Below are positions 3,995 through 37,608 of a DNA stretch of 56,168 nt, piece after piece. The stretch is taken from IMG/VR virus record IMGVR_UViG_3300034053_000011, positions 1 to 56,168 of that record, one strand, 5' to 3'. The stretch comes from a virus. Taxonomy: Duplodnaviria; Caudoviricetes. A program made the position numbers and the translations under genes. Within the stretch, counting starts at the first letter, position 1. Each line of letters starts with the position of its first letter. The notes below the pieces were generated by a model. The model ran no database searches and was not told the DNA's origin. It worked only from the letters and a program-made list of their open reading frames with translations.

Positions 3995-3997
3995 TCC

Positions 3998-4186: not shown

Positions 4187-4189
4187 CTA

Positions 4190-4218: not shown

Positions 4219-4250
4219 TATCACCGTGGCGACCCCGCTCGCCCATACGA

Positions 4251-4275
4251 AACCCGCCCAGGAGGTGGGTTTTTT
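4251..4275 (+). terminator. Intrinsic terminator between the promoter and the portal gene
   Basis: AACCCGCC-CAGGA-GGTGGGTT followed by a T run. Confidence 0.7.
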
Positions 4276-4290
4276 ATTTCTGGAGACGAT

Positions 4291-13062: not shown

Positions 13063-13066
13063 CGAA

Positions 13067-15761: not shown

Positions 15762-15832
15762 TGTTGTTGTTTCATTGTTGATGACGCTGTAGAATCTAAC
15801 CGCCGCGACTTCGCTCGCCCTAAATTTATCGG

Positions 15833-15860
15833 ACCCCGCCACTGAGCGGGGTTTTTGTTT
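15833..15860 (+). terminator. Intrinsic terminator
   Basis: ACCCCGC-CACTGA-GCGGGGT followed by TTTT. Confidence 0.75.
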
Positions 15861-15871
15861 TGGAGGCCGCT

Positions 15872-17347
15872 ATGGCTGGACTCATAAATACCTACACAAA
15901 CTCGATGGGTGGGGTGCAGAACGTCGGCACAGCAGACTATGGGCTGCAATGGGAATACAACAACGCCCGCAGCAAGGGTTTGTCCGACGACCAGATTGCC
16001 ACAAAGTACGGTGTCAAGGCTGCTGACCTTGGGCAATTCCATGCTGGGTTTCAGCAACAGCAGGTTCCGCAGTGGTTCGGCGCCCCAATGGCAATGCCGC
16101 AAGCTCCGTCGCCTACGGCACCGACAGATGGACAGGTGTTCGGATCAGCTCCGACTGCGCCTGCGAACACCTATCAGAACTCACTTGGCGCGCGGCAAGA
16201 CGTTGGCACGGCTGATTATGGGCTGCAGGGTATCTATAACGCCGAGCGCAGCAAGGGCCTGTCCGACGACCAGATTGCCAGCGCCTACGGCTACAAAGCG
16301 GCAGACCTGACTCAGTTTCATGCTGGTTACAAGCCCTCTACCGGGTTGATCAACACGCCGGCTCCGGCTCCCCAGGCTCCACCACCTACTGTTAGCGCTC
16401 AGCCACCTACTGTAGCCGGACCACCGCCTGGCCCGCAGAACCCGACGCTCAACACCAACATCAAGAACACGCTCGGCGAAGCCAACATCAACCAGGGTAT
16501 TGATCCTGGCACGATGACCGTCGAAGGCCGCATCGGCAATCTGCTGACCGCAAACAACCGTGTCATTCAGCAGGCTGGTAACCGAGCGCGGGCCGCGTTT
16601 GCGCAACGTGGCCTACTCAACTCAAGCATGGCCGAAGAGGCCGCGATGGAGGCGATGACGACGAAGGCGATCGAGATTGCTGGACCGGACGCCGCGGCCT
16701 ACCTCAAGCAGAGCCAGCTTAACCAGGACTGGACCAACAAGTTCGCCCAGGACAAGACGCAGCAGGGCTACAAGACGTCGTCAATGGAACAGCAAGGTGC
16801 TATTGATGTCGGCAAGATCGCCGCCGAGTATGGCTTCCGCAACTCGTCCGAAGACAAAGCCAACGTCGCCAAACTGCAGACGAACTACACCTCGGCGATT
16901 GATGGCATCAACAACAACCACTCGACGATGATCAATGCCATCAACCAGATGGACGCTACGCAGGAAGAGAAGCAGGCAATGATCGTCAATGCACAAAACG
17001 CGCGCACCTCGGCGATCAGTTTCACCAATGCCGCATTCGCCAGACTCCCGGGTTGGTCCAAGGATTGGTTGATCAATGAGACGCCGACGACGCAGGCAGG
17101 GGCCGCAGTGAATGAGGTCGCAGCAAAGGACTCCGGCCCATCGGCATTTGATTTCGTCAAAAACCTTCCTGAAAATCAACGTCCGGTGGTAGGTGTTGGT
17201 TTTGGCGTGAGGGAAAAAACACCGGAGCAACTCGCCCATGAGTACAACGTCTACAAGATGGCCGGTGGGGGAATGAGTCAGTACGATTGGCTCCAGAAGA
17301 ACTACCCGCCACGGAATCAGAACTCCGAAGGCGGCGGCTCTGACTAA
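15872..17347 (+). CDS. Putative internal virion (ejection) protein with a duplicated ~54-aa N-terminal unit
   Basis: ATG at 15872 after GGAGG; A..RGLLNSSMA motif; Q/A/N-rich; internal repeat. Confidence 0.7.
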   Translation: MAGLINTYTNSMGGVQNVGTADYGLQWEYNNARSKGLSDDQIATKYGVKAADLGQFHAGFQQQQVPQWFGAPMAMPQAPSPTAPTDGQVFGSAPTAPANTYQNSLGARQDVGTADYGLQGIYNAERSKGLSDDQIASAYGYKAADLTQFHAGYKPSTGLINTPAPAPQAPPPTVSAQPPTVAGPPPGPQNPTLNTNIKNTLGEANINQGIDPGTMTVEGRIGNLLTANNRVIQQAGNRARAAFAQRGLLNSSMAEEAAMEAMTTKAIEIAGPDAAAYLKQSQLNQDWTNKFAQDKTQQGYKTSSMEQQGAIDVGKIAAEYGFRNSSEDKANVAKLQTNYTSAIDGINNNHSTMINAINQMDATQEEKQAMIVNAQNARTSAISFTNAAFARLPGWSKDWLINETPTTQAGAAVNEVAAKDSGPSAFDFVKNLPENQRPVVGVGFGVREKTPEQLAHEYNVYKMAGGGMSQYDWLQKNYPPRNQNSEGGGSD

Positions 17348-19936: not shown

Positions 19937-22900
19937 ATGGCAGAACTAGACTGGTCCCGGGCTATCCCCGCTGATAACGATTTTCGCGATGCGCGAGACA
20001 TCCAGATGGGGGTAGAAAAACCGAAGTCACTTGATTGGTCTGCTGCTATTGAAGCACCTGAAGTAGAACAAAAACCCTCCGGCCTCCTTGGTGTCGGAGA
20101 AGCCATCTGGACCGGGACAAAGAACCTGATCGAGATGGGCCGGGCTACCGGCAACGTCATCTCCGGTGACAACGCCGCCGTCGAGGCTGGCCGCGAGCGC
20201 AACCTCGCCAACGAAGCAAACTCCCCCCTCGAGAAGCGCCAGTTCATGGCCGACTACATGGCGCGCAACAAGCGCGACCGTGGCACCGATGGCGACGTCT
20301 CCATGCTCGATGCGATCGGTAACCTCGCGTCATCCGCGTGGAACAACAAGATGGGCTTCACCCAGGCGATGGCCGAGCAGGCGCCGAACGCCGTGCCCGT
20401 GCTCGCGATGGGTGCTGCCGGTGCGGCTGCTGGCGCTGCTACGCCAATTCCTGGCGGGGCCATCATCGGCGGCTTCCTCGGCATGGCCCTGGGCAACGCC
20501 GGCATCGAGATCGGCTCCAAGGCTATCGAGAAGGCTGAAGGCGGCCTGACCAATGAAGAATCCAGCGCTGCTCTAAGGGAAGGTTCCGTCAAGGGCACAG
20601 TGATTGCCGGCGTCGACCTGGCCACGCTCGGTATCGGTGGCAAGGCGATGAAGGCTATAGGCGGCACTGCCGTCAAGGCCGGCGCTATGGCAGAGGCCAA
20701 GGTGCTGATGGACGCCGGCGTCGACGTCACCAACCCGATGGCGATAGCTTCCCGGCTCGCTGCTGACAAGGCGCTCGCAGCGTCCGCCAAAGCCGCTGGA
20801 ACCACCGCGGCAAGGGATGCACTCACGCTCGGTCAGAAGGCCGGCATGGCGGCCACTGGCATGGGGCTGGAGACAGTCGGCGAGGGTGTCGGCGAATACT
20901 TCGGCGAGATGGCAGCCACCGGCAAGGGCAACATGGGCGATGCGGTCCTCGAGGCCTTCATGGGAGCCGGTCAGTCGTCTGTCGAGACCGCTTACAACTT
21001 CAACAAGGTCGGGCGCAACGAGCTCGACATGCGCAACATACTCAACGCCGGATCAACCGAAGAGGCGATCCAGCACGCGCGGAATGCACTGGCGCAGAAG
21101 ACGACGGCCGCCAACGTCACCGCCGCCACCGACTTTGAAGTCACTGGCGACTCCGTCATCAACGAGATGGCTGGCGGCCTGGATGCACTCCAGACCTTCA
21201 ACAACCAGACGATCAGCGAGCCTAATGCAGCGGCCGCCGTGGCTGATGCTGATCAGTTCGTACCCGGCGCCGTGCAACCGGTCCCGCTCGAATACCGCAA
21301 CCAGCAGATCATCAACGCCACGCCGGAGACACCACCGGGAATTACCCCGCCGCCGTATCAACGAGGCACTGGTGGGGCGATCAGCGATGCGTCGCTACCG
21401 ATCATAGGGCAGACGCCAGCAACGGCTCCTACGCCCGCTATTGAAGGCGCGCCCAAGGTCAGCATGTACGACCAATACTTGGCCATCCAAGCCAAGGTCG
21501 CCAAAGGTGCAACGCCTACTGCCTTCGAGGCAGCACTCCTCAAGAACCCACCTCCCTCCCCCGCCACACCCACGCTCGAGCTCCCAGCTGGCAAGCAGCA
21601 AGCCGGCGAGGGGCAGGCCAAGCTGATCCAGGAAGTTCAGCGCGCGCGGCAGATGGCGCGCTCCGCTCCGCAGCTTGAGCAGGACGCCGCCCAAGATGAG
21701 CTCGCACCGGCACCGGTCACCATGCAGACCACTCCGGTCCAGGCGCCGCAGCCGGTTAAGTCTGTACCAACCACCCAGACACAGCTCGAGCAGCAAGAGT
21801 TGGTGCCTCGCACCAGCGTCAAGGTCGGTGGCGTCAATGCCGACCTGATGTCGAATGAAGAGCTGCAGGCGATCGTCACGAACCCGAAGGCGAACAAGAA
21901 TACCCGCCGTGCTGCGCAAGAGGTTCTATCCACCCGCTTCACCCCCCAGCGCACGGACATCGCAGAGCTCGAGCGCCAACAATTCCCTGACGTAGGAGAG
22001 ACAACGAATGCCCCTCAAGCCACAGAAGCCCCGGTGCCCGCACTGCAAGAAGAAGCACAGCCCGAGCCGGGAGTGTCCCGCACAGTCGCAAAGCGCTCCG
22101 AAAACCTAGAGCGGATGCTCCGTGAGAATCCCGCAGAGGATCGCGGGATCATGGCCGGCGAGGTCGATATCAACTCGCTGGGCAGCGAGGTCAGCTCGCT
22201 GAAGACGAAGCGTATGGGCAAGCTCAAGGCCCGTGGCATCAAGGCGCTGATGGCCCTGTTCGGGCGCAAGGTGGTCTTCTTCGAGGCCAGCAAGGATACG
22301 GCGGAAGGCATCCACTCCGACAAGAACAATCGCACAATCTACGTCAATGTCGATTCAGAAGTCGATACCCTGGCGGTGGTCAATCACGAGTTCTCCCACT
22401 CGTTTGAGAAGGAGCACCCGGCAGAGTACGCCAAGGCCGTAGCCGCGACTGAAGCCCTGCTGCGTGCTGACGGTACCCGGGCGCTGAAGTATGCGACCTA
22501 CTACAACAAGCGCGACTGGATCGCTGATGGTGCCGTCAAAGATGAGAACGTCGGCGACCTGGCCCGGGAGCTGATCGGCGACATCACCGGCAACGAGGCC
22601 CGCACCGGTGAGTTCTGGGGCGATGTGTTCAACGAGGTGGCGCTACAGAACCCGACCGAGGCCCGGGGCATCATTACCCGTATCCGCGATGCGGTGGTCA
22701 AGTTCATTAACAAGGTGATCGCTGCCACACCGAAGGGTGGCTTCCAGCTCGAGGGTGTCGGCTTCACCCGCGAAGACCTGAAAGAGATCCGTGACCAGGT
22801 GGTGCAGATGGCCGCCAAGTCGATGGTCAAGGCCGAGCGTGTTCGCCTGGGCCTTGAGCAGGATACGGCGGCGGGGGATGGGGTGGTGCGGGAAGCGGCA

Positions 22901-25900
22901 AACCGCAAACAAAAAGTTGCCGTCGCCAAAGGGGCAAAGGCTGGCTTCTCTACGGACAACAAAGTCGGCGTGGCTGTCTCTGCGTCTTACAAGCCTGGCC
23001 GGAACTACGGCACCGTGGTTTATCCGGAGAACGGCGGCAATCTCGTTCGCTTGCATGAGCGGATGCTGGTCATCACCCGCTCCGCGGACTTCGATCGCTT
23101 GCTTGAATCGATCGGGCTCAAGAGCTTCGGCGCGCAGACCACGATCCGCGGGATGTGGGATCGCGAACCGGAATGGACCCAGGTGCTACGCCTGAAGCAA
23201 CTCAACGGCACACCGGCCACGTTCGAGCAGACCCGTGCCGTAGCCAACCTGCTTGGCTGGGCCACACAGCAGGATGCTGCCATCACCTCGATGGTGGTCG
23301 ATAAGCCGGTGGATGGCCAGTACAACATCCCGAGTCTGTACTTCGGCAAGGAAGACGGCACGCCGATGACGGCCGCCGAGATCGATACCGCACTGGCCGC
23401 CTTCGGCAAAGTAACGCCCGGGGCGTCGGTCACGCCAGACGGCAAAACAGTTAAGTTCCTATTCTTCCCGGATGAGAAGTCAAAGCTCAGTGAAACTGAC
23501 CAGCAAATTCAGTTCGGCAAAAATTTGCAGGCTGTTGCGGTTAGCGTTAATCTAAGCCCTGACTACCTGTTGGCATTTACTAACTCGTCTCTGGATGAGT
23601 TCAATAAGAGGACGAACGAAAATGAAAACCGCGGATATCTTGGCCGCAATGAAGGCTACTGGGGGAAGGCTGCTAAAGGACTCGGACCCAGAGCTATACA
23701 AGGCGGAATTGGCGGGCGGACCGTCGATGTCGTTCTCGTCCCGTACATCGCCGCCGTCAGAGCCGAAGGATTCGGATTCGACTACGACCTCTGGCAACAG
23801 CGAAACAAGGCAACCGCAGCAGAAGTAGCCGAGCTTCGCGAGAAGGTCGCTGCCTACGAACAGCAGAACAAGCACGGGCTAAAACCACGTCTGCGCGAAA
23901 CGATCGATATCTCCAATCTCCCGGAGGTGTCGATCGAGGCGCAGATCACCCAGAAAACGAACGAGGCCAACGCCGAGAATCAGCTCGGCATCCTCGACAA
24001 GCTCAAGCAACAATTCCCCAACGCCGTCGAATCCGCCCGTGAGTGGCTCACGATGGCGGCGCACGCCTTTGGCAGCAATGATGTTCCGGTGGCACCGCGC
24101 AACCTGATCAACCTGATGCAGGACAGCGGCGCCGGCATCCTCGAGCAGTTGCGTCAGCTCACCCCGGGGCAGATCAAGGACGCCACCTCTGGCTTCAACA
24201 ACGCGGCCGAGTTCCTCCAGCTTTACACCTCCGGCAAAGTGAAGGTCGAGACCACTGGCAAGCTGATGCTGTGGTCGTTCCTGTCACGCGGGGTCAGCCC
24301 GTACATCCAGGAGGCGATGTTCGTTGATTCCGTGCGTGGTGTCGAGCCGTTCATTCAACAGGCCGCGCGCGGAGAATTTGGTCCGGCAGAGCTGGCAAAT
24401 TACATCGAGTGGGCCGATGGTATTGCCAAGTCCAACGGCGCCGGAGCACCCGGCAATGCCACCAAGCACAACCTGAATGCGTTCGGCAAGAGCTTCTTGA
24501 TCGGGATGTCGCAGAAGGCAGCAAACGGCAAGACCAAACTGCAGCATTTGCATGACATGCTCTCCGACAAATCGATGACTGGCCGCGACATCCGCCGCGA
24601 ATTTGTCAGGATGTCCGAGGGTGTTGGCATCGACAACAAGGTGATGTCATTCACGCTGCTGGTGACTGGGCGCACCGACGTACTGGTGCTGGACCGTATC
24701 CAGATGCGCAATCTGTTCGACGACGGCAGCTTCGCTGGCTACAATCTGTACGACGGCACGCGCAACACCAAGCTGGTAACGGACGCCAAGGACAAAACCA
24801 AGCGGACCATTCACGAGGCTATCAGCCAGCGTGAAGGCGAGACTGACGAGGAGTTCGATAACCGCGTTGATCAAGCTATGCGCAACCTGGCCAAGCAGCT
24901 CAAGATCAAGCCGTCCGCGATCGAAGCGGAACGCGCCATCGAACCTGGCACCGGGTTGGCAAGCATGACCACGGGCGTCCGCGGCTTGATGCTCTACGAG
25001 TTCTTTGAAGACAAGTTGCTCAAGATTCTGCCCGATGTGTATCAGAAGCTAGGCCGCCCACAAGATGCGTCACCGGGGCGATACCACTGGGAATCCTGGG
25101 TGGTGGTGTCAGGTCAAGAGGCCTCTCACGGCACACTGGACTCGCTGCTCTACGAAGCCGAGGGGCAGGAGAATGCGTTTGCTGATGTGACCGTCAAGCA
25201 GGGCGAGTATTCGCAGAAGGACTACGGCGTGCGCTATGGCCGTGACGTCAAGGGCAATCCGTACTACCTCTACGAGAACTCGGCCGGTACCCAGTACAAG
25301 TTGACGCACGACGCCTGGCGCGCTTTGCTGAAGAGCATTGACCGGATCAAGGGTAGGGCTGCCGGGTTCCTGCTGTCTCGAGATGAGCAAGGAAATGCCA
25401 GAACGCAACCGTGGTATTTTGACTCCCGCATCGATCGCGCTAAGATTGACGCCGAACTTCAACAACTAGGAGAGCCGCATGACGGACAAGGAACAGGATC
25501 AGCCCGCCGATCCAATGCGCGGAGCAGTGAATATGATCGAACAGGCTCTGCGGCGGAAGGACGCCCAAGTTATGGTCGAGGTAGAGAAGGAGCGGTCCAG
25601 GCTACGGGAGTCCACTACTCCAAAGCCCAGCGAGGAGAGTTAAGCTCCCGGTTCTTCGGGACCGGGATGAAGGGCGAGGAAGGTGCGCGGATCTCGTATG
25701 CCAAGGACGAGCGGATCAAGAATCGCCTGTACTTCTACATCAACACCGGGCGCGGGGTCGTGCCAGAATCGGACGTTGGCGCCCACGCCCACACGGTAGA
25801 TCTGCAGAACCTCTACGACTTGGACTCCGATCCCCTGGAGCTCTACCCGCGTAGCGATCCAACCAAGGATCAGCGCGACCAGCCTCTCGCCGACGAGCGA

Positions 25901-28900
25901 ATGAACTCGTTCGAGAGCAAGGTTCTCGATGCAGGCTTTGACGGCTACCTCACTCGCGACTTCGGCACCGGCGGCGCCGTGGTCCTGCTCGGTGATCACT
26001 CGGTCCCAGTGCAATACGAGGGCTCCGGCGTCAAGCCCGACGCCCAGGCCTTTTCTGAGCCTGTCACCCTGCGTGGCTGGCGTGAGCTGCAGGACAAGGT
26101 GACCAAGAACAACAGCCTGCCCAACGGCAGTATGATGGGCGCTGACTGGAAGCGCATGATGCCCAAGCTCATGCCCGAGCTGGATGTCTCCCATCTGCCC
26201 GACGAGCGACGCTTCTACAAGGACCAGTTGGTCAAGAGGCCGGAGGCGCGGATGAGCAACCGCCGCGTCGTCGACGTCTTCAAGACCTTGGCAAAAGACG
26301 AGGAGGCGTTCAAGTATCCGGTTCAGACGTCCATGGACCTGGGCGAAGTGGTCAAGGGTATCGACCCGGCTTTCAAGGTGTATCCGGTTGGCAGCGATCA
26401 CTGGTCTGTTGATGAGGCTAAGGCCGACGAGGGGTGGATCATCGTTGCGCCTGACAAGAAGGATGGCTGGGTGTTCCGCAAAGGCAACGACGTCTGGATC
26501 AATGTAGCCTCATTCGGATCTGGGCAGAGCCGCGGGACGGTGGTCTATCAGGCGGTTGGCGACTGGGTCTACAACAACGGCTTCAAGTTCCTTGGCGACC
26601 CGGCGGGCATCTCCTACTTCGGCGCCACCCGGCGGATTGAGAACCTGATCAGCTCGGCGCTCAAGCACGGAACCACAGAACATCTGCGCCCCCACCCGGG
26701 GAACTTCGACCATGTGCCGCCGAATGACCTGGCAGACCACTCAGAAATCAAGTGGGAAGAGGGCGCGCATGATCAAAATTTGGAGAAACTGATCCTGGCG
26801 AGCTATGCTGCAGTTATCGATAGCTACCCGGAGATCAAAGATGTCCGCTTTATACCTGCAACCGGAAGGTTTGAACGAGCTGGAACTCCGCTTGTGGACG
26901 AAGATATTCAGCAGCTCATCGCCGACAACCCCGCCAGCGCTGGTCTTGGCAAGGTATTTGGAGTCTCATCGTTCAAGAGAAGCGTGCTCGTCGATACCGT
27001 TCTACGCGAAACGGGAGGCGAAGGAAGGGGTGGAATACTGGGCGAGCTGGAGCGTCAGCTACAATCCACCGGCTCCGTACCTGGTTTAGGCAAGGTTCTC
27101 TACAGCAATGCCCGCGCTCTACCCAACGACACCCCTGTTAACCGAACTCTCGACGGGGCCAAACTCCAGGCCCTACGTCGTGCTGCGGCTGATCTCGAGC
27201 GACCCAAGGATGGCGTCTACCTCCGCATCACCGAAGACGGTCGTGCCATCGCCACCGGACCCAAGGGCACTCGCATCCCCGAGACTTTCCGTCGTTTCGC
27301 TAGAGACAACGACTTAGCGTTCTTCGCCGAACGCGACATCGGCGTATCCATCTACTCGAAAGCACCGCAAACCACCAAGTCGGAGCCGATGTCCATCGAC
27401 TACCGCGAGAGCGGCGCGCTGTACTTCGGCGAGATGGGTGACGCTAAACTTGATAGAACTGAGCGGACGCGCTTCTCCTTCAAGCGCGTCGACACCAACT
27501 CACCTGAGTTCAAAAAATGGTTCTCAGGGAGCAAGGTGGTTGATGCGAATGGCAAGCCGTTACGGGTGTATCACGGGACAAGGCTGGATTCGCCTATCGA
27601 TCAATTTGATGGGTTGAATTATTCAGGTTGGTTCAGTTCCGCACCAGAAACAGCAAACACCTATGCTGGAGGATATAGTGGAGAGCAAATTGATGAAGGG
27701 TCAGTGTATCCGACGTATCTTGCCATTCGTAATCCGATTGATTTACGCAATCGTGGATTCGATCTGAATGACGATGCGGATATTCAGGGACTTATAGAGG
27801 CTATTCCAGAAGTGGATATGCGCACTTTCAAAACCCATGAAGGAGCATGGGAGGTTTGGGAAATCATCAATAGCCTTGATTTTAGAGAAGCGGCAGAGGC
27901 TGCAGGTTTTGATGGTCTTATCGCTCCGGAAAATAGAGTTACAACATACGCGGCATTCTTCCCCTCTCAAATCAAGTCCGCCATCAGCAACACCGGCGCC
28001 TTCTCCGACACCAATCCTGATATTCGGTATTCGACAAATCGCCTGATCGGCAACTCCGGCCGGCAATACACGCCGGAGCAGGAGGCGATGCACCAGCGTG
28101 TCGGTCGGGTGGTGGATGAGAAGACCATCCTCGAGCGGCTGAAGGATTACATCCAGAAGCGCTGGCGGCAGGGGATCTTCGATCAGTTCGCTCCGTTCTA
28201 CGGGACGCAGGCCTACACCTTGATGCGCTTGTCCAAGGGCTCCACGGGGGCGTTTGAGGCGTTTATGAAGCACGGCAAGCTATCACTGCGTGATGGCGCC
28301 TACGACGCTGACACCACCGGCGGTGTGATCGAGAATGTGTTTCATCCTCTTGGCAAGGAGACGACTGACTTCCTCTACTGGATAGCAGGCAACCGGGCCG
28401 AGCGGTTGGTCGCCGAGGGCAAGGAGCGCCTCTTTACCAATGCCGACATCCAGGCCGCAAAGAGCCTGGCTGATGGCCAGCTCGACTTCGATTACATCCT
28501 GCGCAACGGTACTGTAACGCGCAGCCGCAAGGCCGCCTACATGGACAGCCTGGTCAAGTTCAACGAATTTAACAAGAACGTGATGGACATGGCCGAGCAG
28601 TCAGGGCTGATCGATGGTGCAGCTCGCCACCTATGGGAGCACGAGTTCTACGTTCCGTTCTACAGGGTAATGGAGGACGAGAACACCCGGGCCATGGGGA
28701 TCAAGAAGGGTATTGTCAGGCAGGAGGCTTTCAAGAAGCTGAAGGGCGGCGAGGAACAGCTCGGTGACTTGCTGATGAACACCTTGTTGAACTGGCACCA
28801 CTTGGTTGATGCGGCATCGAAGAATCGCGCGGCCAAGGCGGCGCTCGAGACGGCGCAGCAGTTGGGTATCGCCAGTCCTGCGGTCACCGGCGAGACGAAG

Positions 28901-30529
28901 ACGGTATGGTTCATGGACAACGGGCAGAAGGTTGACTACAAGGTCGATGACCCTGCTGTACTGGAAGCCATCAACGGGCTGCAGTACGCTGGCCTACAGG
29001 GCCCGCTGTGGTCCATCCTGACGGCACCAAAGCATTGGCTCACCGTGGGCGTCACGGCGTCGCCGTTCTTCAAGGTGCGCAACCTGATCCGTGACTCGGT
29101 GCAGGCGATCGCCACTTCGGATCTCAGCTACAACATCGCGAACAATGTGATTGAAGGCGTCAAGCTCACCGCGCGCGATCGGCAGGAATACGTCTCGGCC
29201 CTGGCCGGCGGTGGCCTGATCCGCTTCGGCACCATGCTCGAGGGCAACGAGGCCAAGCGCACCCGGCAACTGATCCGCAAGGGTGCCAAAGACGCTGCCA
29301 TACTGGACAGCCAGGGTGCCTGGACGAAGTTCTACACCGCGGCTTTGGAGCCGGCGATAGAGGCCTACAACGAGCTCGGCAACCGCGGCGAAGAGATCAA
29401 CCGCATGTCGCTCTATAACCAGCTCATCAAGCAAGGCAAGGATCACGCGACGGCCAGCTTGATGGCTCGCGACCTGATGGATTTCAGTCTGCAAGGTTCG
29501 TTCGAGACGATCCGCATCCTGTCCCAGATCGTGCCGTTCTTCAACGCTCGGATGCAGGGCATGTATAAGCTCGGCCGAGCAACGAAGGAGAACCGAGCTC
29601 ACATGGCGACGGTGATCTTCACTGCCGCCCTTGCCAGTCTGGCGCTGATGGGGATGGCCGCCGGTGACGAGGACAAGTGGAAGAAGTGGAAGAAGCGCGA
29701 GGAGTGGGACAAGGCCAGCAACTGGTGGTTCGAGTTCGGCGGCGTGCAGTACCGCATCCCGAAGCCGTTCGAGTTGGGCACCGTGTCGCACATCATGGAA
29801 CGCACCGTCGAGGGTATGTTCGACAAGGAGCGTGATGCGGGCAAACGCACGGCCAAGGCTCTGATGGATGCCGCGATGAATCAGCTCTCAATGAACCCGG
29901 TGCCGCAGGCGTTCAAGCCGATCATCGACCTGTACGCCAACTACGACAGCTTCACCAAGCGCCCGATCGAAACGATGTCGATGCAGCGCCTGGACAAGGA
30001 CCAGCGTTACACGGCGCAGACCTCGATGCCGGCGCGCGCACTATCATCGACGGTGGGCGGTCTGTCACCGGTGCAATATGACCATCTGGTCAGGGCCTAC
30101 TTCGGTTGGCTCGGGGCGCTGTCTGTTGGTACGGCAGACATCGTGGCGCGGTCAGTCAATGATGAGCCGACGAAGCCGGCACTGGACTACTGGAAGTTCG
30201 CCACCGGTGGGCTCCTGCAAGAGGACCAGATTGCCAGTCGCTACACCTCGATGATGTACGACCAGGCGGCCGAGCTCGAGCAGGCGCACGCGACCTACAA
30301 CAAGCTGCGCAAGGACGGCAAACTGGACGAGGCCAAGGAGTACCGTGAGGACAACAAGGACAAGCTCAGCGCCTACCGTTCAGTCGAGAATGTCAAGAAG
30401 CAGGTTGCCACGATCAGCGAACGTATCCGCATGATCGAGCGCAGCAACATTCACCCGGCTGAGAAGCGGATCAAGATTCGAGAGTTGAAGCAGCGCCAGA
30501 GTGACATCGCCTCGAAGTTGAGTCAGTAA
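19937..30529 (+). CDS. Giant polyvalent (ejection/anti-host) protein, 3530 aa: HExxH metallopeptidase-like, HhH-GPD glycosylase-like, two ADP-ribosyltransferase-like, GNAT-like and C-terminal LPD38 domains
   Basis: NHEFSH (22385); GIDNKVMSF...DVLVLDRIQMR (24626-24709); VHYS...RLYFY...GFDGY (25610-25950); FKKWF.GSKVVD.NGKPL.VYHGT...QIKSA..N.G.F....DIRYS (27500-28033); W.....RIPKPFELG (LPD38). Confidence 0.85.
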   Translation: MAELDWSRAIPADNDFRDARDIQMGVEKPKSLDWSAAIEAPEVEQKPSGLLGVGEAIWTGTKNLIEMGRATGNVISGDNAAVEAGRERNLANEANSPLEKRQFMADYMARNKRDRGTDGDVSMLDAIGNLASSAWNNKMGFTQAMAEQAPNAVPVLAMGAAGAAAGAATPIPGGAIIGGFLGMALGNAGIEIGSKAIEKAEGGLTNEESSAALREGSVKGTVIAGVDLATLGIGGKAMKAIGGTAVKAGAMAEAKVLMDAGVDVTNPMAIASRLAADKALAASAKAAGTTAARDALTLGQKAGMAATGMGLETVGEGVGEYFGEMAATGKGNMGDAVLEAFMGAGQSSVETAYNFNKVGRNELDMRNILNAGSTEEAIQHARNALAQKTTAANVTAATDFEVTGDSVINEMAGGLDALQTFNNQTISEPNAAAAVADADQFVPGAVQPVPLEYRNQQIINATPETPPGITPPPYQRGTGGAISDASLPIIGQTPATAPTPAIEGAPKVSMYDQYLAIQAKVAKGATPTAFEAALLKNPPPSPATPTLELPAGKQQAGEGQAKLIQEVQRARQMARSAPQLEQDAAQDELAPAPVTMQTTPVQAPQPVKSVPTTQTQLEQQELVPRTSVKVGGVNADLMSNEELQAIVTNPKANKNTRRAAQEVLSTRFTPQRTDIAELERQQFPDVGETTNAPQATEAPVPALQEEAQPEPGVSRTVAKRSENLERMLRENPAEDRGIMAGEVDINSLGSEVSSLKTKRMGKLKARGIKALMALFGRKVVFFEASKDTAEGIHSDKNNRTIYVNVDSEVDTLAVVNHEFSHSFEKEHPAEYAKAVAATEALLRADGTRALKYATYYNKRDWIADGAVKDENVGDLARELIGDITGNEARTGEFWGDVFNEVALQNPTEARGIITRIRDAVVKFINKVIAATPKGGFQLEGVGFTREDLKEIRDQVVQMAAKSMVKAERVRLGLEQDTAAGDGVVREAANRKQKVAVAKGAKAGFSTDNKVGVAVSASYKPGRNYGTVVYPENGGNLVRLHERMLVITRSADFDRLLESIGLKSFGAQTTIRGMWDREPEWTQVLRLKQLNGTPATFEQTRAVANLLGWATQQDAAITSMVVDKPVDGQYNIPSLYFGKEDGTPMTAAEIDTALAAFGKVTPGASVTPDGKTVKFLFFPDEKSKLSETDQQIQFGKNLQAVAVSVNLSPDYLLAFTNSSLDEFNKRTNENENRGYLGRNEGYWGKAAKGLGPRAIQGGIGGRTVDVVLVPYIAAVRAEGFGFDYDLWQQRNKATAAEVAELREKVAAYEQQNKHGLKPRLRETIDISNLPEVSIEAQITQKTNEANAENQLGILDKLKQQFPNAVESAREWLTMAAHAFGSNDVPVAPRNLINLMQDSGAGILEQLRQLTPGQIKDATSGFNNAAEFLQLYTSGKVKVETTGKLMLWSFLSRGVSPYIQEAMFVDSVRGVEPFIQQAARGEFGPAELANYIEWADGIAKSNGAGAPGNATKHNLNAFGKSFLIGMSQKAANGKTKLQHLHDMLSDKSMTGRDIRREFVRMSEGVGIDNKVMSFTLLVTGRTDVLVLDRIQMRNLFDDGSFAGYNLYDGTRNTKLVTDAKDKTKRTIHEAISQREGETDEEFDNRVDQAMRNLAKQLKIKPSAIEAERAIEPGTGLASMTTGVRGLMLYEFFEDKLLKILPDVYQKLGRPQDASPGRYHWESWVVVSGQEASHGTLDSLLYEAEGQENAFADVTVKQGEYSQKDYGVRYGRDVKGNPYYLYENSAGTQYKLTHDAWRALLKSIDRIKGRAAGFLLSRDEQGNARTQPWYFDSRIDRAKIDAELQQLGEPHDGQGTGSARRSNARSSEYDRTGSAAEGRPSYGRGREGAVQATGVHYSKAQRGELSSRFFGTGMKGEEGARISYAKDERIKNRLYFYINTGRGVVPESDVGAHAHTVDLQNLYDLDSDPLELYPRSDPTKDQRDQPLADERMNSFESKVLDAGFDGYLTRDFGTGGAVVLLGDHSVPVQYEGSGVKPDAQAFSEPVTLRGWRELQDKVTKNNSLPNGSMMGADWKRMMPKLMPELDVSHLPDERRFYKDQLVKRPEARMSNRRVVDVFKTLAKDEEAFKYPVQTSMDLGEVVKGIDPAFKVYPVGSDHWSVDEAKADEGWIIVAPDKKDGWVFRKGNDVWINVASFGSGQSRGTVVYQAVGDWVYNNGFKFLGDPAGISYFGATRRIENLISSALKHGTTEHLRPHPGNFDHVPPNDLADHSEIKWEEGAHDQNLEKLILASYAAVIDSYPEIKDVRFIPATGRFERAGTPLVDEDIQQLIADNPASAGLGKVFGVSSFKRSVLVDTVLRETGGEGRGGILGELERQLQSTGSVPGLGKVLYSNARALPNDTPVNRTLDGAKLQALRRAAADLERPKDGVYLRITEDGRAIATGPKGTRIPETFRRFARDNDLAFFAERDIGVSIYSKAPQTTKSEPMSIDYRESGALYFGEMGDAKLDRTERTRFSFKRVDTNSPEFKKWFSGSKVVDANGKPLRVYHGTRLDSPIDQFDGLNYSGWFSSAPETANTYAGGYSGEQIDEGSVYPTYLAIRNPIDLRNRGFDLNDDADIQGLIEAIPEVDMRTFKTHEGAWEVWEIINSLDFREAAEAAGFDGLIAPENRVTTYAAFFPSQIKSAISNTGAFSDTNPDIRYSTNRLIGNSGRQYTPEQEAMHQRVGRVVDEKTILERLKDYIQKRWRQGIFDQFAPFYGTQAYTLMRLSKGSTGAFEAFMKHGKLSLRDGAYDADTTGGVIENVFHPLGKETTDFLYWIAGNRAERLVAEGKERLFTNADIQAAKSLADGQLDFDYILRNGTVTRSRKAAYMDSLVKFNEFNKNVMDMAEQSGLIDGAARHLWEHEFYVPFYRVMEDENTRAMGIKKGIVRQEAFKKLKGGEEQLGDLLMNTLLNWHHLVDAASKNRAAKAALETAQQLGIASPAVTGETKTVWFMDNGQKVDYKVDDPAVLEAINGLQYAGLQGPLWSILTAPKHWLTVGVTASPFFKVRNLIRDSVQAIATSDLSYNIANNVIEGVKLTARDRQEYVSALAGGGLIRFGTMLEGNEAKRTRQLIRKGAKDAAILDSQGAWTKFYTAALEPAIEAYNELGNRGEEINRMSLYNQLIKQGKDHATASLMARDLMDFSLQGSFETIRILSQIVPFFNARMQGMYKLGRATKENRAHMATVIFTAALASLALMGMAAGDEDKWKKWKKREEWDKASNWWFEFGGVQYRIPKPFELGTVSHIMERTVEGMFDKERDAGKRTAKALMDAAMNQLSMNPVPQAFKPIIDLYANYDSFTKRPIETMSMQRLDKDQRYTAQTSMPARALSSTVGGLSPVQYDHLVRAYFGWLGALSVGTADIVARSVNDEPTKPALDYWKFATGGLLQEDQIASRYTSMMYDQAAELEQAHATYNKLRKDGKLDEAKEYREDNKDKLSAYRSVENVKKQVATISERIRMIERSNIHPAEKRIKIRELKQRQSDIASKLSQ
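22008..22109 (+). CDS. Nested +1-frame ORF A, 33 aa, with a CxxC-x3-H-x5-C motif
   Basis: AGGAG RBS at 21994-21998, then MPLKPQKPRCPHCKKKHSPSRECPAQSQSAPKT*. Confidence 0.45.
   Translation: MPLKPQKPRCPHCKKKHSPSRECPAQSQSAPKT
23622..23828 (+). CDS. Nested +1-frame ORF B, 68 aa
   Basis: AAGAGG RBS, then MKTADILAAMKATGGRLLKDSDPELYKAELAGG...; possible promoter TTGCAG-17-TAATCT at 23525-23553. Confidence 0.5.
   Translation: MKTADILAAMKATGGRLLKDSDPELYKAELAGGPSMSFSSRTSPPSEPKDSDSTTTSGNSETRQPQQK
25419..25446 (+). promoter_or_regulatory. Internal sigma70-like promoter for nested ORF C
   Basis: TTGACT-16-TAAGAT, ending 32 nt before the ATG at 25479. Confidence 0.5.
25479..25643 (+). CDS. Nested +1-frame ORF C, 54 aa, helical and charged
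   Basis: AGGAG RBS, then MTDKEQDQPADPMRGAVNMIEQALRRKDAQVMVEVEKERSRLRESTTPKPSEES*. Confidence 0.55.
   Translation: MTDKEQDQPADPMRGAVNMIEQALRRKDAQVMVEVEKERSRLRESTTPKPSEES
26841..27089 (+). CDS. Nested +1-frame ORF D, 82 aa
   Basis: GGAG RBS, then MSALYLQPEGLNELELRLWTKIF...VLARYLESH...EGVEYWASW... Confidence 0.5.
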   Translation: MSALYLQPEGLNELELRLWTKIFSSSSPTTPPALVLARYLESHRSREACSSIPFYAKREAKEGVEYWASWSVSYNPPAPYLV

Positions 30530-30841: not shown

Positions 30842-31131
30842 AGGAAGGCTGGGTATGAAAAGGACAATCGCCAAGTAACCGCCGCCATTAACGCAAAAAA
30901 AAACGTGCAAAACGTAGGCGTGCGTGCCCATTGTTCTCAGATCATGAGCAAGTTGCTTTGATGTATAAGATAGCGAAATCACTTTCTCGGGTTCATGGCA
31001 TAGAGTACCATGTTGACCACATTGTTCCTTTGGCTGGTAAAGATGTATCTGGTCTTCATGTCCATTGGAACCTTCAAGTCATTCCAGCTTCCGAGAACCT
31101 AAAAAAGTCTAATATTTGGGGACCGGTGTAA
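30842..31131 (+). pseudogene. Frameshifted HNH endonuclease remnant
   Basis: ...[16 protein letters not shown] / [11 protein letters not shown]...[36 protein letters not shown] is broken at an A9 run (30895-30903); a stop lies upstream and there is no clear start. Confidence 0.7.
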
Positions 31132-32336: not shown

Positions 32337-32460
32337 CGACAACCTCTCCTTTCGATAATCCCGTTGGGATACGTCTGCTGTATCTAGCTAGTTGTTTGTC
32401 GCGTTTGTGCCTCGCTGGTAGATTGGCGGACGTTTTTTTGGGGTCTACTTCGTGTTGGGC
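32337..32460 (+). other. Degenerate long attC-like hairpin
   Basis: Outer CGACAAC...GTTGGGC boxes; inner arms ACGTCTGC..ATCTA / TAGAT..GCGGACGT; the adjacent minus-strand gene ends ...PNTK* in the R box. Confidence 0.45.
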
Positions 32461-32804
32461 GTCATGTCCTTCGGTGGGAAGAAGCCGTAGCGTGAATGGA
32501 TGTCCAGCACCAGCTTGTCGTAATCAACCTTCACGTCAGGACGGAACGCTGCCATGTGCCGCTGGAACCGCACCAAGAACTCACGCTCTGCCGCCCTCAC
32601 GACCTCTTTCAATATTGAGCGAAACACTGCCTCACCTGGGTGTGACGTGAAGTTAGTCGCCAGCGTGTAAGGGCCGCAACTGGCATATCCAGGGGGTGGT
32701 GTTGGTTTGTACCGCTCAAGCGCAGCGCGGAGACTTGCATTAACCGCCTGCGTGTTAATGAGGTCTTTCACATCATCCTCGGTCAGTTCAATTTGCAACT
32801 TCAT
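32445..32804 (-). CDS. Hypothetical protein between attC-like sites
   Basis: 119 aa; AGGTGA RBS. Confidence 0.65.
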   Translation of the reverse strand: MKLQIELTEDDVKDLINTQAVNASLRAALERYKPTPPPGYASCGPYTLATNFTSHPGEAVFRSILKEVVRAAEREFLVRFQRHMAAFRPDVKVDYDKLVLDIHSRYGFFPPKDMTPNTK

Positions 32805-32824
32805 CTCATCACCTTTGTTTCGCC

Positions 32825-32883
32825 GCCCAACCCATCCTTCAACCGGACCCGCTGAAGCGGGCCGGTTAAGTCAGACGTTAGGT
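32825..32883 (+). other. Integron attC recombination site (59-base element)
   Basis: R'' GCCCAAC, 5-nt spacer, L'' CTT(C)AACC, GG(A)CCCGC-TGAA-GCGGGCC, L' GGTTAAG, 6-nt spacer, R' GTTAGGT. It is exactly 59 bp with both extrahelical bases. Confidence 0.85.
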
Positions 32884-33071
32884 ACCGTTAGCAGTCCCCA
32901 ATGACTGAACCACTCGTGTTGCTGATCTACGTTTAAATCCCACGCCATCTCTAGCGCACGGCAATCAACGACCCCGTTTTCCAGCACGTTTGCCGAAAAA
33001 ACATCATCGTCGTACCAAATTACAATCCGCCCGCGTGGCGGCTTCATGCTCGTGGTTTTAATCCAGTCCAT
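32871..33071 (-). CDS. DUF551-like small protein
   Basis: M.WIK.....PP start and SHW..L..P end; its stop lies within the attC. Confidence 0.6.
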   Translation of the reverse strand: MDWIKTTSMKPPRGRIVIWYDDDVFSANVLENGVVDCRALEMAWDLNVDQQHEWFSHWGLLTVPNV

Positions 33072-33097
33072 TTTCTTGATCTCTATGCCATCCCCAG

Positions 33098-33128
33098 ACT
33101 GCACCGCCCCTGAATTCACACGTTGGGC
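33098..33128 (+). other. attC right half-site (L'-spacer-R')
   Basis: GCCCCTGAATTCACACGTTGGGC, 2 bp from the stop of the neighbouring gene. Confidence 0.6.
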
Positions 33129-33129
33129 C

Positions 33130-33303
33130 TCAACACCCTCCCAACGCTTCCCAAAAAATGCGCCGCATCTCCCGGTCATCCTCTGGTTCGTCTTGCGGAT
33201 CCATCCCTCCGATAGGGTTCTGCATTAACCCTTTAAGCCACTCAGCCTCACGTTCGTTCAGCACAAGCGTTATGGTTTGAGTAATTTTAGTGTTCGTCTG
33301 CAT
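33130..33303 (-). CDS. Hypothetical protein
   Basis: MQTNTKITQTITLVLNEREAEWLK...; AGAGG RBS. Confidence 0.65.
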   Translation of the reverse strand: MQTNTKITQTITLVLNEREAEWLKGLMQNPIGGMDPQDEPEDDREMRRIFWEALGGC

Positions 33304-33316
33304 GATGTTTAATCCT

Positions 33317-33490
33317 CTAAAAATTAACATTTACGTCCATTGCCTTTGGCCGTTGAGCCAGGCGCTTGTTTTTTGCCAGCTTCACCCAAACCCAAGGCGC
33401 CTCAAATAGAAAACGAACAACGCCGTTTGATTTTCCTTCGCGGCTTCGTCGCCGGTTTATCCAGCGCTTTATTTCCTTCGGTGCTTTCAT
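33317..33490 (-). CDS. Basic hypothetical protein
   Basis: MKAPKEIKRW...; GGAGG RBS. Confidence 0.55.
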   Translation of the reverse strand: MKAPKEIKRWINRRRSREGKSNGVVRFLFEAPWVWVKLAKNKRLAQRPKAMDVNVNF

Positions 33491-33547
33491 CGCGTCCTCC
33501 CGTATAACTTTGCGTAATCCATGATGCTCCCCTTTCTCCAAAATGCC

Positions 33548-33587
33548 GTCCAACCCTACGCTCAAGCGGGGCTGCGTCAGGTTGGCC
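33548..33587 (+). other. attC left half-site (R''-spacer-L'')
   Basis: GTCCAAC-CCTAC-GCTCAAGC-GGGGCTGCG; the right arm is deleted. Confidence 0.6.
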
Positions 33588-33611
33588 CGGACGTACTTCA
33601 CGCATGTCTCG

Positions 33612-33926
33612 TTAATCTTGTCCGAGCACCAAGCCATACCGTTGTATTTCTCTATCTACCGCAGCTCCAAAATCGTACAAACTACTATCTGCCGGATTGC
33701 GACGTACTGTAATAGTGAATATAGGGCCGTGCGCATCGGCCTCTTGTTTTACGTTATTCGCCAACCACTGGTATCGATCGGCTGCCTTTTTATAAACGGG
33801 TGCCGCAGGCTCTGCATTTTCTATTTGGGCAATTGCAGCCTGAAGATTGATAATTGTTTGTGTACGTAATACCCCAAAGTCTTGTACATCTTCAAGAACT
33901 TGCTTCATCGTATCTAGTGGTGTCAT
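33612..33926 (-). CDS. Hypothetical protein
   Basis: MTPLDTMKQVLE after AAGGAG; ADRYQWL...D.AVD motif common in phage early genes. Confidence 0.65.
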   Translation of the reverse strand: MTPLDTMKQVLEDVQDFGVLRTQTIINLQAAIAQIENAEPAAPVYKKAADRYQWLANNVKQEADAHGPIFTITVRRNPADSSLYDFGAAVDREIQRYGLVLGQD

Positions 33927-33979
33927 TGCTTCTCCTTTAGTTAGATTAGGTGCCGCCTCCGAGTTTCCACACTCTTTCC

Positions 33980-34252
33980 TTAACACCTTTTGTTACCTTT
34001 GGTTAAAAGGATTTGGAGGCGGCGTTGATCGTAATACTCAAGCAAGCTGCGGGGCAGGTTTTCCCGACCAGCGCCTTTGCTCCTTTCGTAAAAGTGAGGC
34101 CGCTTGCTTGAGTTCGTTTGTAGGGTGAGGGGTTGGTTTACTTGTCCTGCTGCTCTGAGGCACGGGCACTGGAGCATCGCATCTCCCAACCTAGTCCCTT
34201 CCACTGGCCTTTTGGTTCCTCTGGTTTCAAGAACCAACCCCTCGTAAAACAT
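33980..34252 (-). CDS. Hypothetical protein
   Basis: MFYEGLVLE after GAGGAG. Confidence 0.5.
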   Translation of the reverse strand: MFYEGLVLETRGTKRPVEGTRLGDAMLQCPCLRAAGQVNQPLTLQTNSSKRPHFYERSKGAGRENLPRSLLEYYDQRRLQILLTKGNKRC

Positions 34253-35620: not shown

Positions 35621-37042
35621 TCAAGACTTTTCCTTCGATAATCTATAAGACTTTATCGCGTTTCTAAGGGAGTTTTGTGTGTCGGCCTTATCATTCAGTG
35701 CCAGTGCTTGCGCATGATCGAGGGTGTCGAGGGTCAGAATACGATGGCAAATCACAGGGATACCTTGCCCTTGACGACGGATACGAGCATTGAACTGGTC
35801 GTATAAGTCGAGGCTCCAGTTCAGACCGAACCAGACTAGGTGATGTCCGATCTTCTGTAGTCCGTCGATACCATGTCCCATACTGGCAGGATGTCCGATC
35901 ATCAGGGCGCACTCTCCCGATTGCCAGTATTCCATTGCTGCCTTCAGTGATGCCTCGGTTTTACACTCCGTCAGATTGACGGGTTTCAGATCCTTGAATC
36001 GCTCCATGATCCTCTCAGCGTCACTGCGGTAAGCGTAGGAGCAGAGGATAGGCTGACTGGCGCATTCTTCGATGATGTCTTCCAAGGCATCAAGTTTAAG
36101 GTCATGGATGTACTCCCACTTGGGGTCGCCAGGAATGGGGTAAAGCGCACCATTACTGAACTGTAGGCACTTGTTAGTGAGGCTGGCAGCATTGAACATC
36201 TCAACCTCGGTGCCGTTGTCGAGTGCCAAGAAGAATTCTCTTTCCATCCGGTCATACATGGAGCGAAGATCGTCGGTCAGTTCGACCTCTACATCGTGGA
36301 TAATCATGTCCGGTAATGGGTTGTAGTCCTCGGCTGACATCTCCAGAGTAATGTCTCCTATGAGGCGTTTAATCGTTTCCTCAGTGTCCGAGTATGGTAC
36401 TTCCTTGTATGGGCCTTCCTTACGGTAGAAACGGGTCTTAAACGCTGTTTTAGAGGTTCCCAAGCGTACCCCTTGGTCAAGTACCAAGTATTGTCCATGG
36501 AGATCTTTGTAACCGTTGCTGGCGGGTGTGCCTGTCAGTCCTGTAGTCCATGCGAACTTGGGTAACACTTTCCTCAATGCCTTGACCCGTTGAGTTGCTG
36601 AGTTCTTGCACTTGCTAATCTCGTCATAGACGATCCCATCGAATGGGAACGGGGTGTCCTTGTCGATGAAGTAAGTCTTGAGTGTCTCGGATAGCCAACC
36701 AAGGTTTTCATAGTTGATGAGATAAACATCTGCCTCGCGTAGCAAGGCACGAGTACGCTGATCCTTCGTACCCATCACCATACTGAACCGTAATCCTTTA
36801 GTATGTTCCCACTTTGCTGCCTCCTGCCGCCACACTAGACGGCACACACGAATGGGTGCAACGATCACAACTGCCTTGAGGTAGCCACAACCGATCAGGT
36901 CAGCAATGCTGGTGAGGGTGATAGCGGTCTTACCCAACCCCATATCGAGCCAGAGTGCAGAGGCAGGGTGAGTGGATTGGAACAGGACGGCCTTTTGTTG
37001 GTACGAATGGAGTTGCTCACGGGTTAGCATAATGATCCCCAT
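35621..37042 (-). CDS. SNF2-family DNA helicase
   Basis: LDMGLGKT (Walker A), YDEIS (Walker B), LTGTP, HGIDGLQ, Q.NARI.RQGQ. Confidence 0.92.
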   Translation of the reverse strand: MGIIMLTREQLHSYQQKAVLFQSTHPASALWLDMGLGKTAITLTSIADLIGCGYLKAVVIVAPIRVCRLVWRQEAAKWEHTKGLRFSMVMGTKDQRTRALLREADVYLINYENLGWLSETLKTYFIDKDTPFPFDGIVYDEISKCKNSATQRVKALRKVLPKFAWTTGLTGTPASNGYKDLHGQYLVLDQGVRLGTSKTAFKTRFYRKEGPYKEVPYSDTEETIKRLIGDITLEMSAEDYNPLPDMIIHDVEVELTDDLRSMYDRMEREFFLALDNGTEVEMFNAASLTNKCLQFSNGALYPIPGDPKWEYIHDLKLDALEDIIEECASQPILCSYAYRSDAERIMERFKDLKPVNLTECKTEASLKAAMEYWQSGECALMIGHPASMGHGIDGLQKIGHHLVWFGLNWSLDLYDQFNARIRRQGQGIPVICHRILTLDTLDHAQALALNDKADTQNSLRNAIKSYRLSKEKS

Positions 37043-37608
37043 TGATGGGCCATTGCATCTGCGATACCTTGGTAGGTACGACTACGCTCTTTCCAACGAT
37101 CAGGACTGGGTGGTAAATAGTGTAGTCTCTCTCTCTGATTCTTAGGTAACAGCATCATTTCATCCTTGACGTTGTTTGTTGGAATCAGTTTTGGCAACCC
37201 TTTCAACCATAGGCAAGTGGTTTTCTGTTCCATATGTCCAAACATCCACGGTTGAATGATCTGGTCGGGTTTGCGGATCTTGCTGCTGATTACACTGATA
37301 GGGTTCTCAATGGCTATCCTTGGTATCGGAGCATCCATCAACATTTGCACAAAATCCAATGCTCTCTGTTGTCTTCCATCCGCTATCTTCTCTTTGAACC
37401 ATACAGCACCCGATACTGCAATATCCGTACATGGAGGATGTGCTACCATCAGATCCCACCCTTGGCCAATGATGTCAAAAACATCACCTTGGTAATGATT
37501 CCCTGGTGCGTCAGACGACAATAGATCACAAGACATTGCGAAGTGTCCCTTGGCAGCAAAGGCATCCCGTACTCGACCACTGTATTCACAAGCCACCAGA
37601 ATGTTCAT
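37024..37608 (-). CDS. Short C5-cytosine methyltransferase-like protein
   Basis: LVACE.SG (motif I-like), HPPCT (motif IV), IENP (motif VI), RS.TY.GIA.AMA.QW. Confidence 0.75.
   Translation of the reverse strand: MNILVACEYSGRVRDAFAAKGHFAMSCDLLSSDAPGNHYQGDVFDIIGQGWDLMVAHPPCTDIAVSGAVWFKEKIADGRQQRALDFVQMLMDAPIPRIAIENPISVISSKIRKPDQIIQPWMFGHMEQKTTCLWLKGLPKLIPTNNVKDEMMLLPKNQRERLHYLPPSPDRWKERSRTYQGIADAMAHQWGSLC

Follow-up and report, generated by a model that had tools for sequence, protein, structure and literature searches.

Integron gene cassettes have a fixed polarity: the gene lies on the top strand of its attC site, and its expression after capture is guaranteed. Some phages have a single-stranded site that folds and is acted on by a tyrosine recombinase of the host, as in the case of CTX-phi and XerCD. 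In this report, we describe an attC site, with the remains of others, among the small early genes of a tailed phage (Caudoviricetes), IMG/VR record IMGVR_UViG_3300034053_000011. The window that we analysed is the whole record (56,168 bp), which carries direct terminal repeats and is estimated to be 100% complete. We conclude, with a probability that we put at roughly 0.55, that the region is the eroded remnant of an attC array of mirror polarity, whose single intact site could be used in trans by an integron integrase (IntI) of the host.

attC sites have been found in phages before. The text of a survey of 10,705 phage genomes (Qi 2023, PMC9892861) gives three integrons, one In0 and 17 groups of clustered attC sites that have no integron integrase (CALINs), describes phages TJE1 and PH101 as typical arrays, and states that IntI1 recombined five of six attCs from virulent phages. 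As such clusters are presented there, our locus resembles them in having integron-type attCs between small genes of an integrase-free phage and in the DNA methyltransferases found among the cargo of its sister arrays; it is unlike them in that it has one intact site, below the two-site definition of a CALIN, and in that the site faces the opposite way to the genes. The other described class is the single attC site lacking an integron integrase (SALIN; Loot et al., bioRxiv 10.1101/2022.09.11.507474). From that account, the likeness is an isolated intact attC next to a coding sequence, with no integrase or attI nearby. SALINs, as reported there, come from bacterial genomes, and the window differs in its flanking half-site relics and in adjacent genes that are antisense to the attC top strand; further, comparison with a metagenome contig, L162, puts no junction of the window at the G/TT crossover point.

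In form, the site belongs with the short (57-60 nt) attCs of mobile integrons, for instance the ones that follow aadA and blaOXA-2 in plasmid R46. It shares with them the length class, the boxes, unpaired spacers of 6-7 nt, a short loop and, on the '' arm, two extra bases with a spacing of 6 bp. In the R46 integron the gene is on the top strand upstream of its attC (four of four), whereas the genes of the window are on the bottom strand. The parallel with CTX-phi and XerCD, a site on a phage and a host enzyme acting on its hairpin, is an analogy of mechanism only; no integration is known for the phage studied here.

An intact attC site and two half-sites

Since Rfam holds no attC family, covariance models were built for this study. 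IntI1 of plasmid R46 led to 80 bacterial loci with IntI1-type integrases, in which a motif-plus-fold filter applied upstream of intI picked 46 sites (38 unique). The 25 sites of at most 72 nt were aligned, with a 17-pair structure that is 90.6% paired (76% in shuffles), and yielded model R1; a second model, R2, was made from 102 matches. R1 returned 109 matches at an expectation value (E) of at most 0.01 in the 80 integron loci (851 kb), with scores of 25-76 bits; 107 are on the same strand as the cassettes, and two are reverse-strand echoes. In 978 kb of unrelated phage loci, fetched via a helicase, its best score was 18.6 bits (E 0.41). The strand call was compared with annotation in two cases: the attCs are co-oriented with the cassette genes of R46 (4/4) and, by the covariance model, with the genes of phage TJE1 (3/3). 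This agreement makes + the top strand at the site in the window. In Polaribacter phage P12002L (L173), a published CALIN phage, we found no significant attC (best 12.6 bits, E 1.8); according to the text of Qi 2023 (PMC9892861), one of its two published sites failed in those authors' assay too.

The complete attC that an earlier note on this DNA had placed at 32825-32883 is strongly supported. R1 scores it at 55.4 bits (E 9.5e-11), with every other match in the genome at E of at least 2.5, and R2 at 57.5 bits (E 1.5e-10); with both strands searched, only + carries a significant match, and the - strand has none at E ≤ 10. Its terminal boxes fit RYYYAAC (R'') and GTTRRRY (R'). On the + strand the site consists of 6-nt unpaired spacers, a 15-nt 5' arm bearing two partnerless bases, a 4-nt loop and a 14-nt 3' arm. 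When the - strand is folded, the R boxes pair, 6 and 5 nt stay unpaired between the R and L boxes, and a T and a G are left unpaired on the 3' arm of the stem; these bulges occupy the same columns as in the 25 seed attCs. The site thus combines pairable terminal boxes, a hairpin with unpaired spacer, extrahelical bases and loop, and a significant covariance-model score. R-box pairing, unpaired spacer and extrahelical bases are the bottom-strand architecture set out in the text of Nivina 2016 (PMC5027507), from which the definition of the pairable inverse core and core boxes (RYYYAAC and GTTRRRY) is also taken. Searched against plasmids with blastn, the attC gave only matches at E of at least 3. 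No terminator was called at the hairpin, and no T-run follows it. In the L'-R' spacer (32871-32883; also in the model consensus), a conserved TCA reads on the bottom strand as TGA, in frame and three bases past the AAC of R'; here this TGA is the stop codon of the adjacent gene, o102 (Table 1).

The recombinogenic bottom strand of the site is the - strand, which is the coding strand. The inverted orientation asserted in the earlier note therefore stands: the attC top strand is + and all neighbouring open reading frames (ORFs) are on -. Accordingly, the site is not part of a canonical integron gene cassette, in which the flanking ORF would be on the attC top strand, and there is no plausible + strand ORF to the left of the attC. 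The claim that the genome has no tyrosine recombinase is likewise upheld. Profiles TIGR02249, PF00589, PF00239 and PF01797 found no match in the complete genome, which by this four-family search encodes no integron integrase, tyrosine or serine recombinase, or Y1 transposase. With TIGR02249 and PF00589 null, the locus is not a complete integron, which would comprise intI, attI and a cassette promoter; with one significant site, and the next at 13.2 bits (E 0.77), it is not a CALIN. It does fit a SALIN, a single attC by a coding sequence with neither a further att site nor an integrase nearby, with the caveat of two half-site relics.

For the half-sites, left (30-column) and right (29-column) profiles were cut from 88 unique aligned attCs. 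With the right-half profile the intact site ranks first in the genome (16.3 bits) and 33106-33128 second (12.4 bits, E 0.014), followed by a match of 5.4 bits. With the left-half profile, 33548-33569 is the best match (12.6 bits, E 0.013), ahead of the intact site's own left half (12.0) and of the next match (7.5). The two halves that the earlier note had drawn, at 33098-33128 and 33548-33587, thus both hold, each in a shorter stretch. Among 100 simulated genomes (5.6 Mb) no left match reached 12.6 bits and one right match reached 12.4; the maxima in the 978 kb of control phage DNA were 13.0 bits for the left profile (one sequence, in two related loci) and 10.9 for the right. The right half lies in the gap between the stop codon of o66 and the short start of o102 and forms no hairpin (z +0.92). 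Scored as whole attCs, neither half is significant; the left half reaches 8.1-13.2 bits, with its best match, already cited, at 33548-33596. Both half-sites share the strand of the intact site, are no more than 750 nt away from it and occupy intergenic gaps. By their profile scores and this placement, they are real attC-derived relics.

The remaining elements of the earlier note fared less well. A long degenerate hairpin at 32337-32460 folds no better than shuffles (z -0.15) and matches neither model nor profile, and a supposed R-box remnant at ~33940-33952 is a bare GTTRRRY heptamer. The statement that all elements face the same way stands for the intact attC and the two halves, which are on +. 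The phage cassette array that the note proposed is not a working array, being one intact site and two half relics. Two ORFs do end in an R box, as had been noticed: their last codons (PNV-stop and PNTK-stop) run across RYYYAAC heptamers. The heptamers RYYYAAC and GTTRRRY each occur ~50 times per strand genome-wide; on the + strand of the region GTTRRRY occurs six times (1.5 expected), two of the six being inside the intact attC. One heptamer, at 32454-32460, is possibly what is left of the R' box of a fourth site. A fourth right half at 32440-32460 was considered and rejected, there being no profile match.

attC arrays and their polarity in other viral contigs

Reversed attC polarity is common in viral contigs. 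A scan of IMG/VR with a strand-neutral attC consensus pattern gave 55 viral loci with 188 attCs at E ≤ 1e-4, in which gene strand was judged by two independent, crude tests: a gene caller based on GC content at third codon positions (GC3), and the presence, in the 60 nt that follow the hairpin, of a Shine-Dalgarno (SD) word together with a start codon that opens an ORF of at least 50 aa. According to the GC3 caller, flanking genes are opposite to the attC in 288 cases and on the same strand in 41, so scored 45 loci are mirrored, three canonical and seven mixed or without a call. The control for this caller was 12 bacterial integron loci (50 attCs), chosen from the 80 for having several attCs; these gave 24 genes opposite and 57 on the same strand (eight loci canonical, two mirrored, two mixed). 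The SD test, counted over unique attCs, found the start signals at the bottom-strand end only for 100 of 158 attCs in the 55 loci, at the top-strand end only for four, and at both ends for none. In a set of nine related contigs, introduced below, plus the window (34 unique attCs), the corresponding counts are 20, zero and one, and in the bacterial control (48 unique attCs) zero, 11 and zero. The counts omit one 5'-truncated site from the 55-locus set, and two contig-end sites and one site of E 0.016 from the nine-contig set. Phage attCs as such are already published (Qi 2023, PMC9892861, in its text); their mirror polarity we did not find in print, the running text of the literature on attCs in phages, figures and supplements aside, containing no description of it that we could find.

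The attC of the window has close kin. A pattern search located its stem in nine viral contigs, in which R2 detects 35 distinct attCs at E ≤ 0.003, with scores up to 70 bits; one attC within the array of contig L163 is 87% identical to that of the window over 61 nt. In nine of nine contigs the array genes are on the strand opposite the attC top strand. The proteins encoded between the attCs are of phage type: RecT, DUF6527, N6_N4 and Dam methylases, SNF2, DnaB-like and replication proteins, and also an exonuclease, a head-tail adaptor and phrog_12600. The breakpoints of the phrog_12600 gene, which two arrays have in common, were too divergent to map.

Several viral contigs deserve mention in their own right. 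One of 26 kb (L177, also G001) has 12 attCs (35-63 bits) in 4.4 kb (12251-16691), which share one strand, antisense in every case to the small genes that separate them; against cultured phages, blastn of this array matched only a methyltransferase motif. Contig L165, from a phage, has a lone attC (4815-4872, +) directly adjoining the start of a - strand gene for an N6_N4 DNA methyltransferase, and also encodes a 65%-identical homologue of the window ORF at 37024-37608. A tyrosine recombinase of 318-328 aa is encoded at the downstream end of the array genes in L204 (1580-2536, -) and L176 (G002; 3755-4741, +); its gene diverges from the attC top strand in the manner of intI in integrons. The recombinase beside the G002 array was rejected as an IntI: it is a generic phage integrase, with 32.5 bits against TIGR02249 and a cut-off of 265. 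That of L204 was assigned by Pfam only.

Near-identical contigs differ by single cassette-sized units with attCs at their borders. L204 exceeds L226 by 381 bp, one unit, and the single attC of L226 at this point consists of the upstream flank and R''-side spacer of one L204 site joined to the downstream flank of the next; the crossover falls somewhere from the spacer to the end of R', a range that includes the canonical G/TT. L232 has one unit of ~353 bp more than L218, and the switch lies inside a 9-nt stretch that covers R'' and excludes R'. Hybrid attCs that share only their last 24-35 nt are also present (L203 or L226 against L204). These differences could reflect attC-mediated exchange, with which their sequences fit, and are also compatible with homologous or microhomology recombination between short similar repeats. 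Other viral contigs thus lend indirect support to a flux of genes bounded by attCs.

The early genes around the site

The structural genes of the phage and a 3530-aa polyvalent protein are encoded on the + strand as far as 30.5 kb. The segment from ~31 to 44 kb is encoded on the - strand; an SNF2 helicase, a dCTP deaminase, a DUF3310 protein and a weak NinG-like protein are found there, along with numerous small ORFans. It is between small early genes of this segment that the attC and the half-sites occur. Read as transcribed, towards lower coordinates, the order is o124, the left-half relic, a 58-aa ORF and o66, the right-half relic, o102, the intact attC, a ribosome-binding site (RBS) with o119, whose end spans a GCCCAAC heptamer, a 124-nt gap, and the NinG-like gene. 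Positions are collected in Table 1.

Table 1. Positions, strands and basis of the attC elements and of the neighbouring early genes.
Feature	Position	Strand	Basis or remark
Intact attC, 59 nt	32825..32883	+ (top strand)	covariance models R1 and R2
Intact attC, R''	32825-32831	+	
Intact attC, 5' spacer	32832-32837	+	
Intact attC, L''/stem	32838-32852	+	contains the two extra bases
Intact attC, loop	32853-32856	+	
Intact attC, stem/L'	32857-32870	+	
Intact attC, 3' spacer	32871-32876	+	
Intact attC, R'	32877-32883	+	
attC right half (L', spacer, R' ending GTTGGGC)	33106..33128	+	right-half profile; left half missing
attC left half (R'' GTCCAAC, spacer, L'')	33548..33569	+	left-half profile; L' arm missing
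Shortened 40-nt hairpin enclosing the left half, ends GTTGGCC	33548..33587	+	fold z -2.48
GTTGGGC heptamer overlapping the o119 end (PNTK-stop)	32454..32460	+	sequence reading; exact complement of intact R''
o119, 119-aa ORFan directly downstream of attC in coding direction	32445..32804	-	no family found
o102, 102 aa as longest ORF	32871..33179	-	82-aa form on record; 67-aa form would start at 33071
o66, small early gene between the two half-sites	33130..33330	-	phrog_7471, E 5e-14
58-aa ORF between o66 and left half-site	33317..33493	-	GGAGG RBS; without family
o124 (ATG form), upstream of left half-site in coding direction	33612..33927	-	without family

The gene o119 begins, with RBS and ATG, 21 nt after R''. 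Among 5.8 billion and 1.84 billion proteins it has one homologue, P0002 (86% identical), which is encoded on L162, a metagenome contig of 1155 bp that has no attC. Nucleotide homology with L162 covers 32441-32814 of the window; it breaks off ~10 nt before R'' at one end and, at the other, extends 14 nt beyond the GTTGGGC at 32454-32460, a heptamer that L162 retains as coding sequence. On the other side of the attC, the last codons and the TGA stop of o102 fall within the R' box and spacer; a search for homologues of o102 found none. We had considered a tail swap, in which the C-termini of o102 and o119 were exchanged at a cassette junction, and this idea is weakened because L162 shares sequence beyond that junction. 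The 58-aa ORF is the short form of a 106-aa ORF (33317-33637).

Relatives of the region are scarce. Neither blastn against 50,697 phage records nor a search for sequencing runs containing the region produced a match or a listed run, and Rfam over 30-37 kb gave four matches, all sub-threshold. None of 80 viral loci retrieved by a helicase search encodes homologues of the nine local small ORFs (0/80). Scans with the NinG-like protein, o102 and an o119 alignment found no close relative, and no relative of the phage differing at the G/TT point was found.

Other features of the neighbourhood are recorded here. The polyvalent protein (19937-30529, +) has LPD37, LPD38 and ADP-ribosyltransferase (ART) domains and an HExxH-like motif, and is probably an injected multi-domain protein. 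Hairpin promoters of the N4 type were rejected as an explanation, since the protein, with these domains, is not a virion RNA polymerase. Between this giant gene and the early region, opposite the early genes, is an ORF of 66 aa with an HNH-like motif (30931-31131, +). Just upstream of the start of o124, 33944-34024 folds on the - strand into a 9-bp GC-rich stem closing ~55 nt (z -3.99; none of 200 shuffles equally stable) that is not attC-like, and a second inverted repeat, with 15-nt arms that are 93% complementary, occupies 34036-34113.

Origin and possible use of the site

We envisage the region as having been a series of small early genes arranged like cassettes, in which an integron-type attC hairpin came after each gene as transcribed; the recombinogenic bottom strand of the hairpin would be the coding (non-template) strand. 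Of these hairpins, 32825-32883 would have stayed structurally intact, and the two sites upstream of it in the coding direction would each have lost one arm. As the phage has no recombinase, the intact attC is usable only with the IntI of a host. If such an integrase is present, it could bind the folded - strand and carry out exchange with a second attC, with an attI or with a genomic site of the GWT type, and small accessory genes could be added, removed or swapped by exchange at the intact attC. We infer, then, that IntI is the enzyme acting on this attC, that the site is still used in this phage, and that o119, o102, o66 and the 58-aa ORF are former cassette cargo.

A number of facts weigh against this eroded-array reading. 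With one intact site left, exchange between two attCs within the phage is now impossible, and capture into a bacterial integron would put a gene of mirror polarity antisense to the cassette promoter. Homologues of the local ORFs are absent from the 66 viral attC-bearing loci, the only contig with an o119 homologue lacks an attC, and the homology block that it shares with the window ends at neither crossover point. Further, of the two natural indels, one has its breakpoint in R'' and not at the canonical R' cleavage point. The models are ad hoc, with a seed from a motif-plus-fold filter and a rough calibration. For the 55 loci, the strand of the genes was assigned by crude callers and not by annotation, and the GC3 caller was on the wrong side in 24 of 81 calls of its bacterial control. 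There are near-duplicate contigs among these loci, so the independent lineages are fewer, and the co-oriented attCs of TJE1 make it plain that the polarity rule is not universal.

Some of the same facts would suit an inert fossil: a real attC and half-sites brought in from another phage's array by illegitimate or homologous phage mosaicism, now decaying and with no role in recombination. Two of the three sites are already half-deleted, the genome has no integrase, the o119 homologue stands without an attC in homology that ends off the crossover points, and hybrid attCs, broken 24-35 nt from their 3' end, occur between L203 or L226 and L204. The intact site, however, keeps all structural features and has a mid-range score for live attCs, which is unexpected under neutral decay unless it was acquired recently, and we consider such a fossil rather unlikely. 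Less probable again is an origin as a SALIN by one insertion event, in which IntI would have placed a circular cassette (32455-32877, with o119 reversed) at a GTT secondary site (attG) close to where o102 has its 3' end. The heptamer at 32454-32460 is the exact complement of R'', as the split R' of a 423-bp inserted cassette would be, and both SALINs and attG insertion are described in the text of Loot et al. (bioRxiv 10.1101/2022.09.11.507474). Yet the homology with L162 continues 14 nt beyond the left junction that this model requires and does not reach the attC, and a single insertion leaves unexplained both the two nearby half-sites and the mirror polarity common to many viral arrays.

The hairpin might instead act in RNA, as a terminator, a processing or stability site, or a device for translational coupling, and either be attC-like by convergence or have been co-opted. 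It sits on the transcribed strand in the 66 nt that separate a stop codon from the RBS after it, an SD and start codon regularly follow the hairpin in viral arrays, and attCs are thought to contain weak terminators, as stated in the text of Qi 2023 (PMC9892861). Against this speak the missing T-run, the absence of a called terminator and the lack of an Rfam match; moreover, convergence cannot account for 57 bits, with boxes, spacers and bulges in register, or for 87% identity to the attC of an array, and we give an RNA-level element little credence. A palindrome arising by chance might be entertained given the ~50 copies of each heptamer per strand, but it is refuted by the E of ~1e-10 in the genome and by the absence of any score of 19 bits or more in the 978 kb of control phage DNA. 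We thus retain the eroded array, open to a host IntI, as our preferred account.

We propose, tentatively and as a broader possibility, that the attC arrays of phages are a cassette pool apart, mirror-image to that of bacteria, in which the bottom strand is coding in most cases, and of which the window may be a decaying member. Our hypothesis is that the reversed polarity places the recombinogenic strand on the non-template, and probably lagging-template, strand; transcription, and probably co-directional replication too, would expose that strand in mirror arrays. Exchange between such a pool and bacterial integrons would be antisense and therefore silent.

Taken alone, the window is of modest significance, with one live-looking site and two relics. 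If mirror polarity is a functional rule, it would point to a phage-specific use of host IntI, or of another partner, to shuffle early accessory genes. If the regularity holds, phages would keep a cassette pool of their own, with a different exposure of strands, and would not be mere vehicles for bacterial cassettes, the role proposed for them until now; the strand-selection rules of IntI would become testable on natural mirror substrates. Such arrays would also be a place to seek the origin of attCs and cassettes and the traffic between phages and integrons, including that of the defence cassettes in chromosomal integrons.

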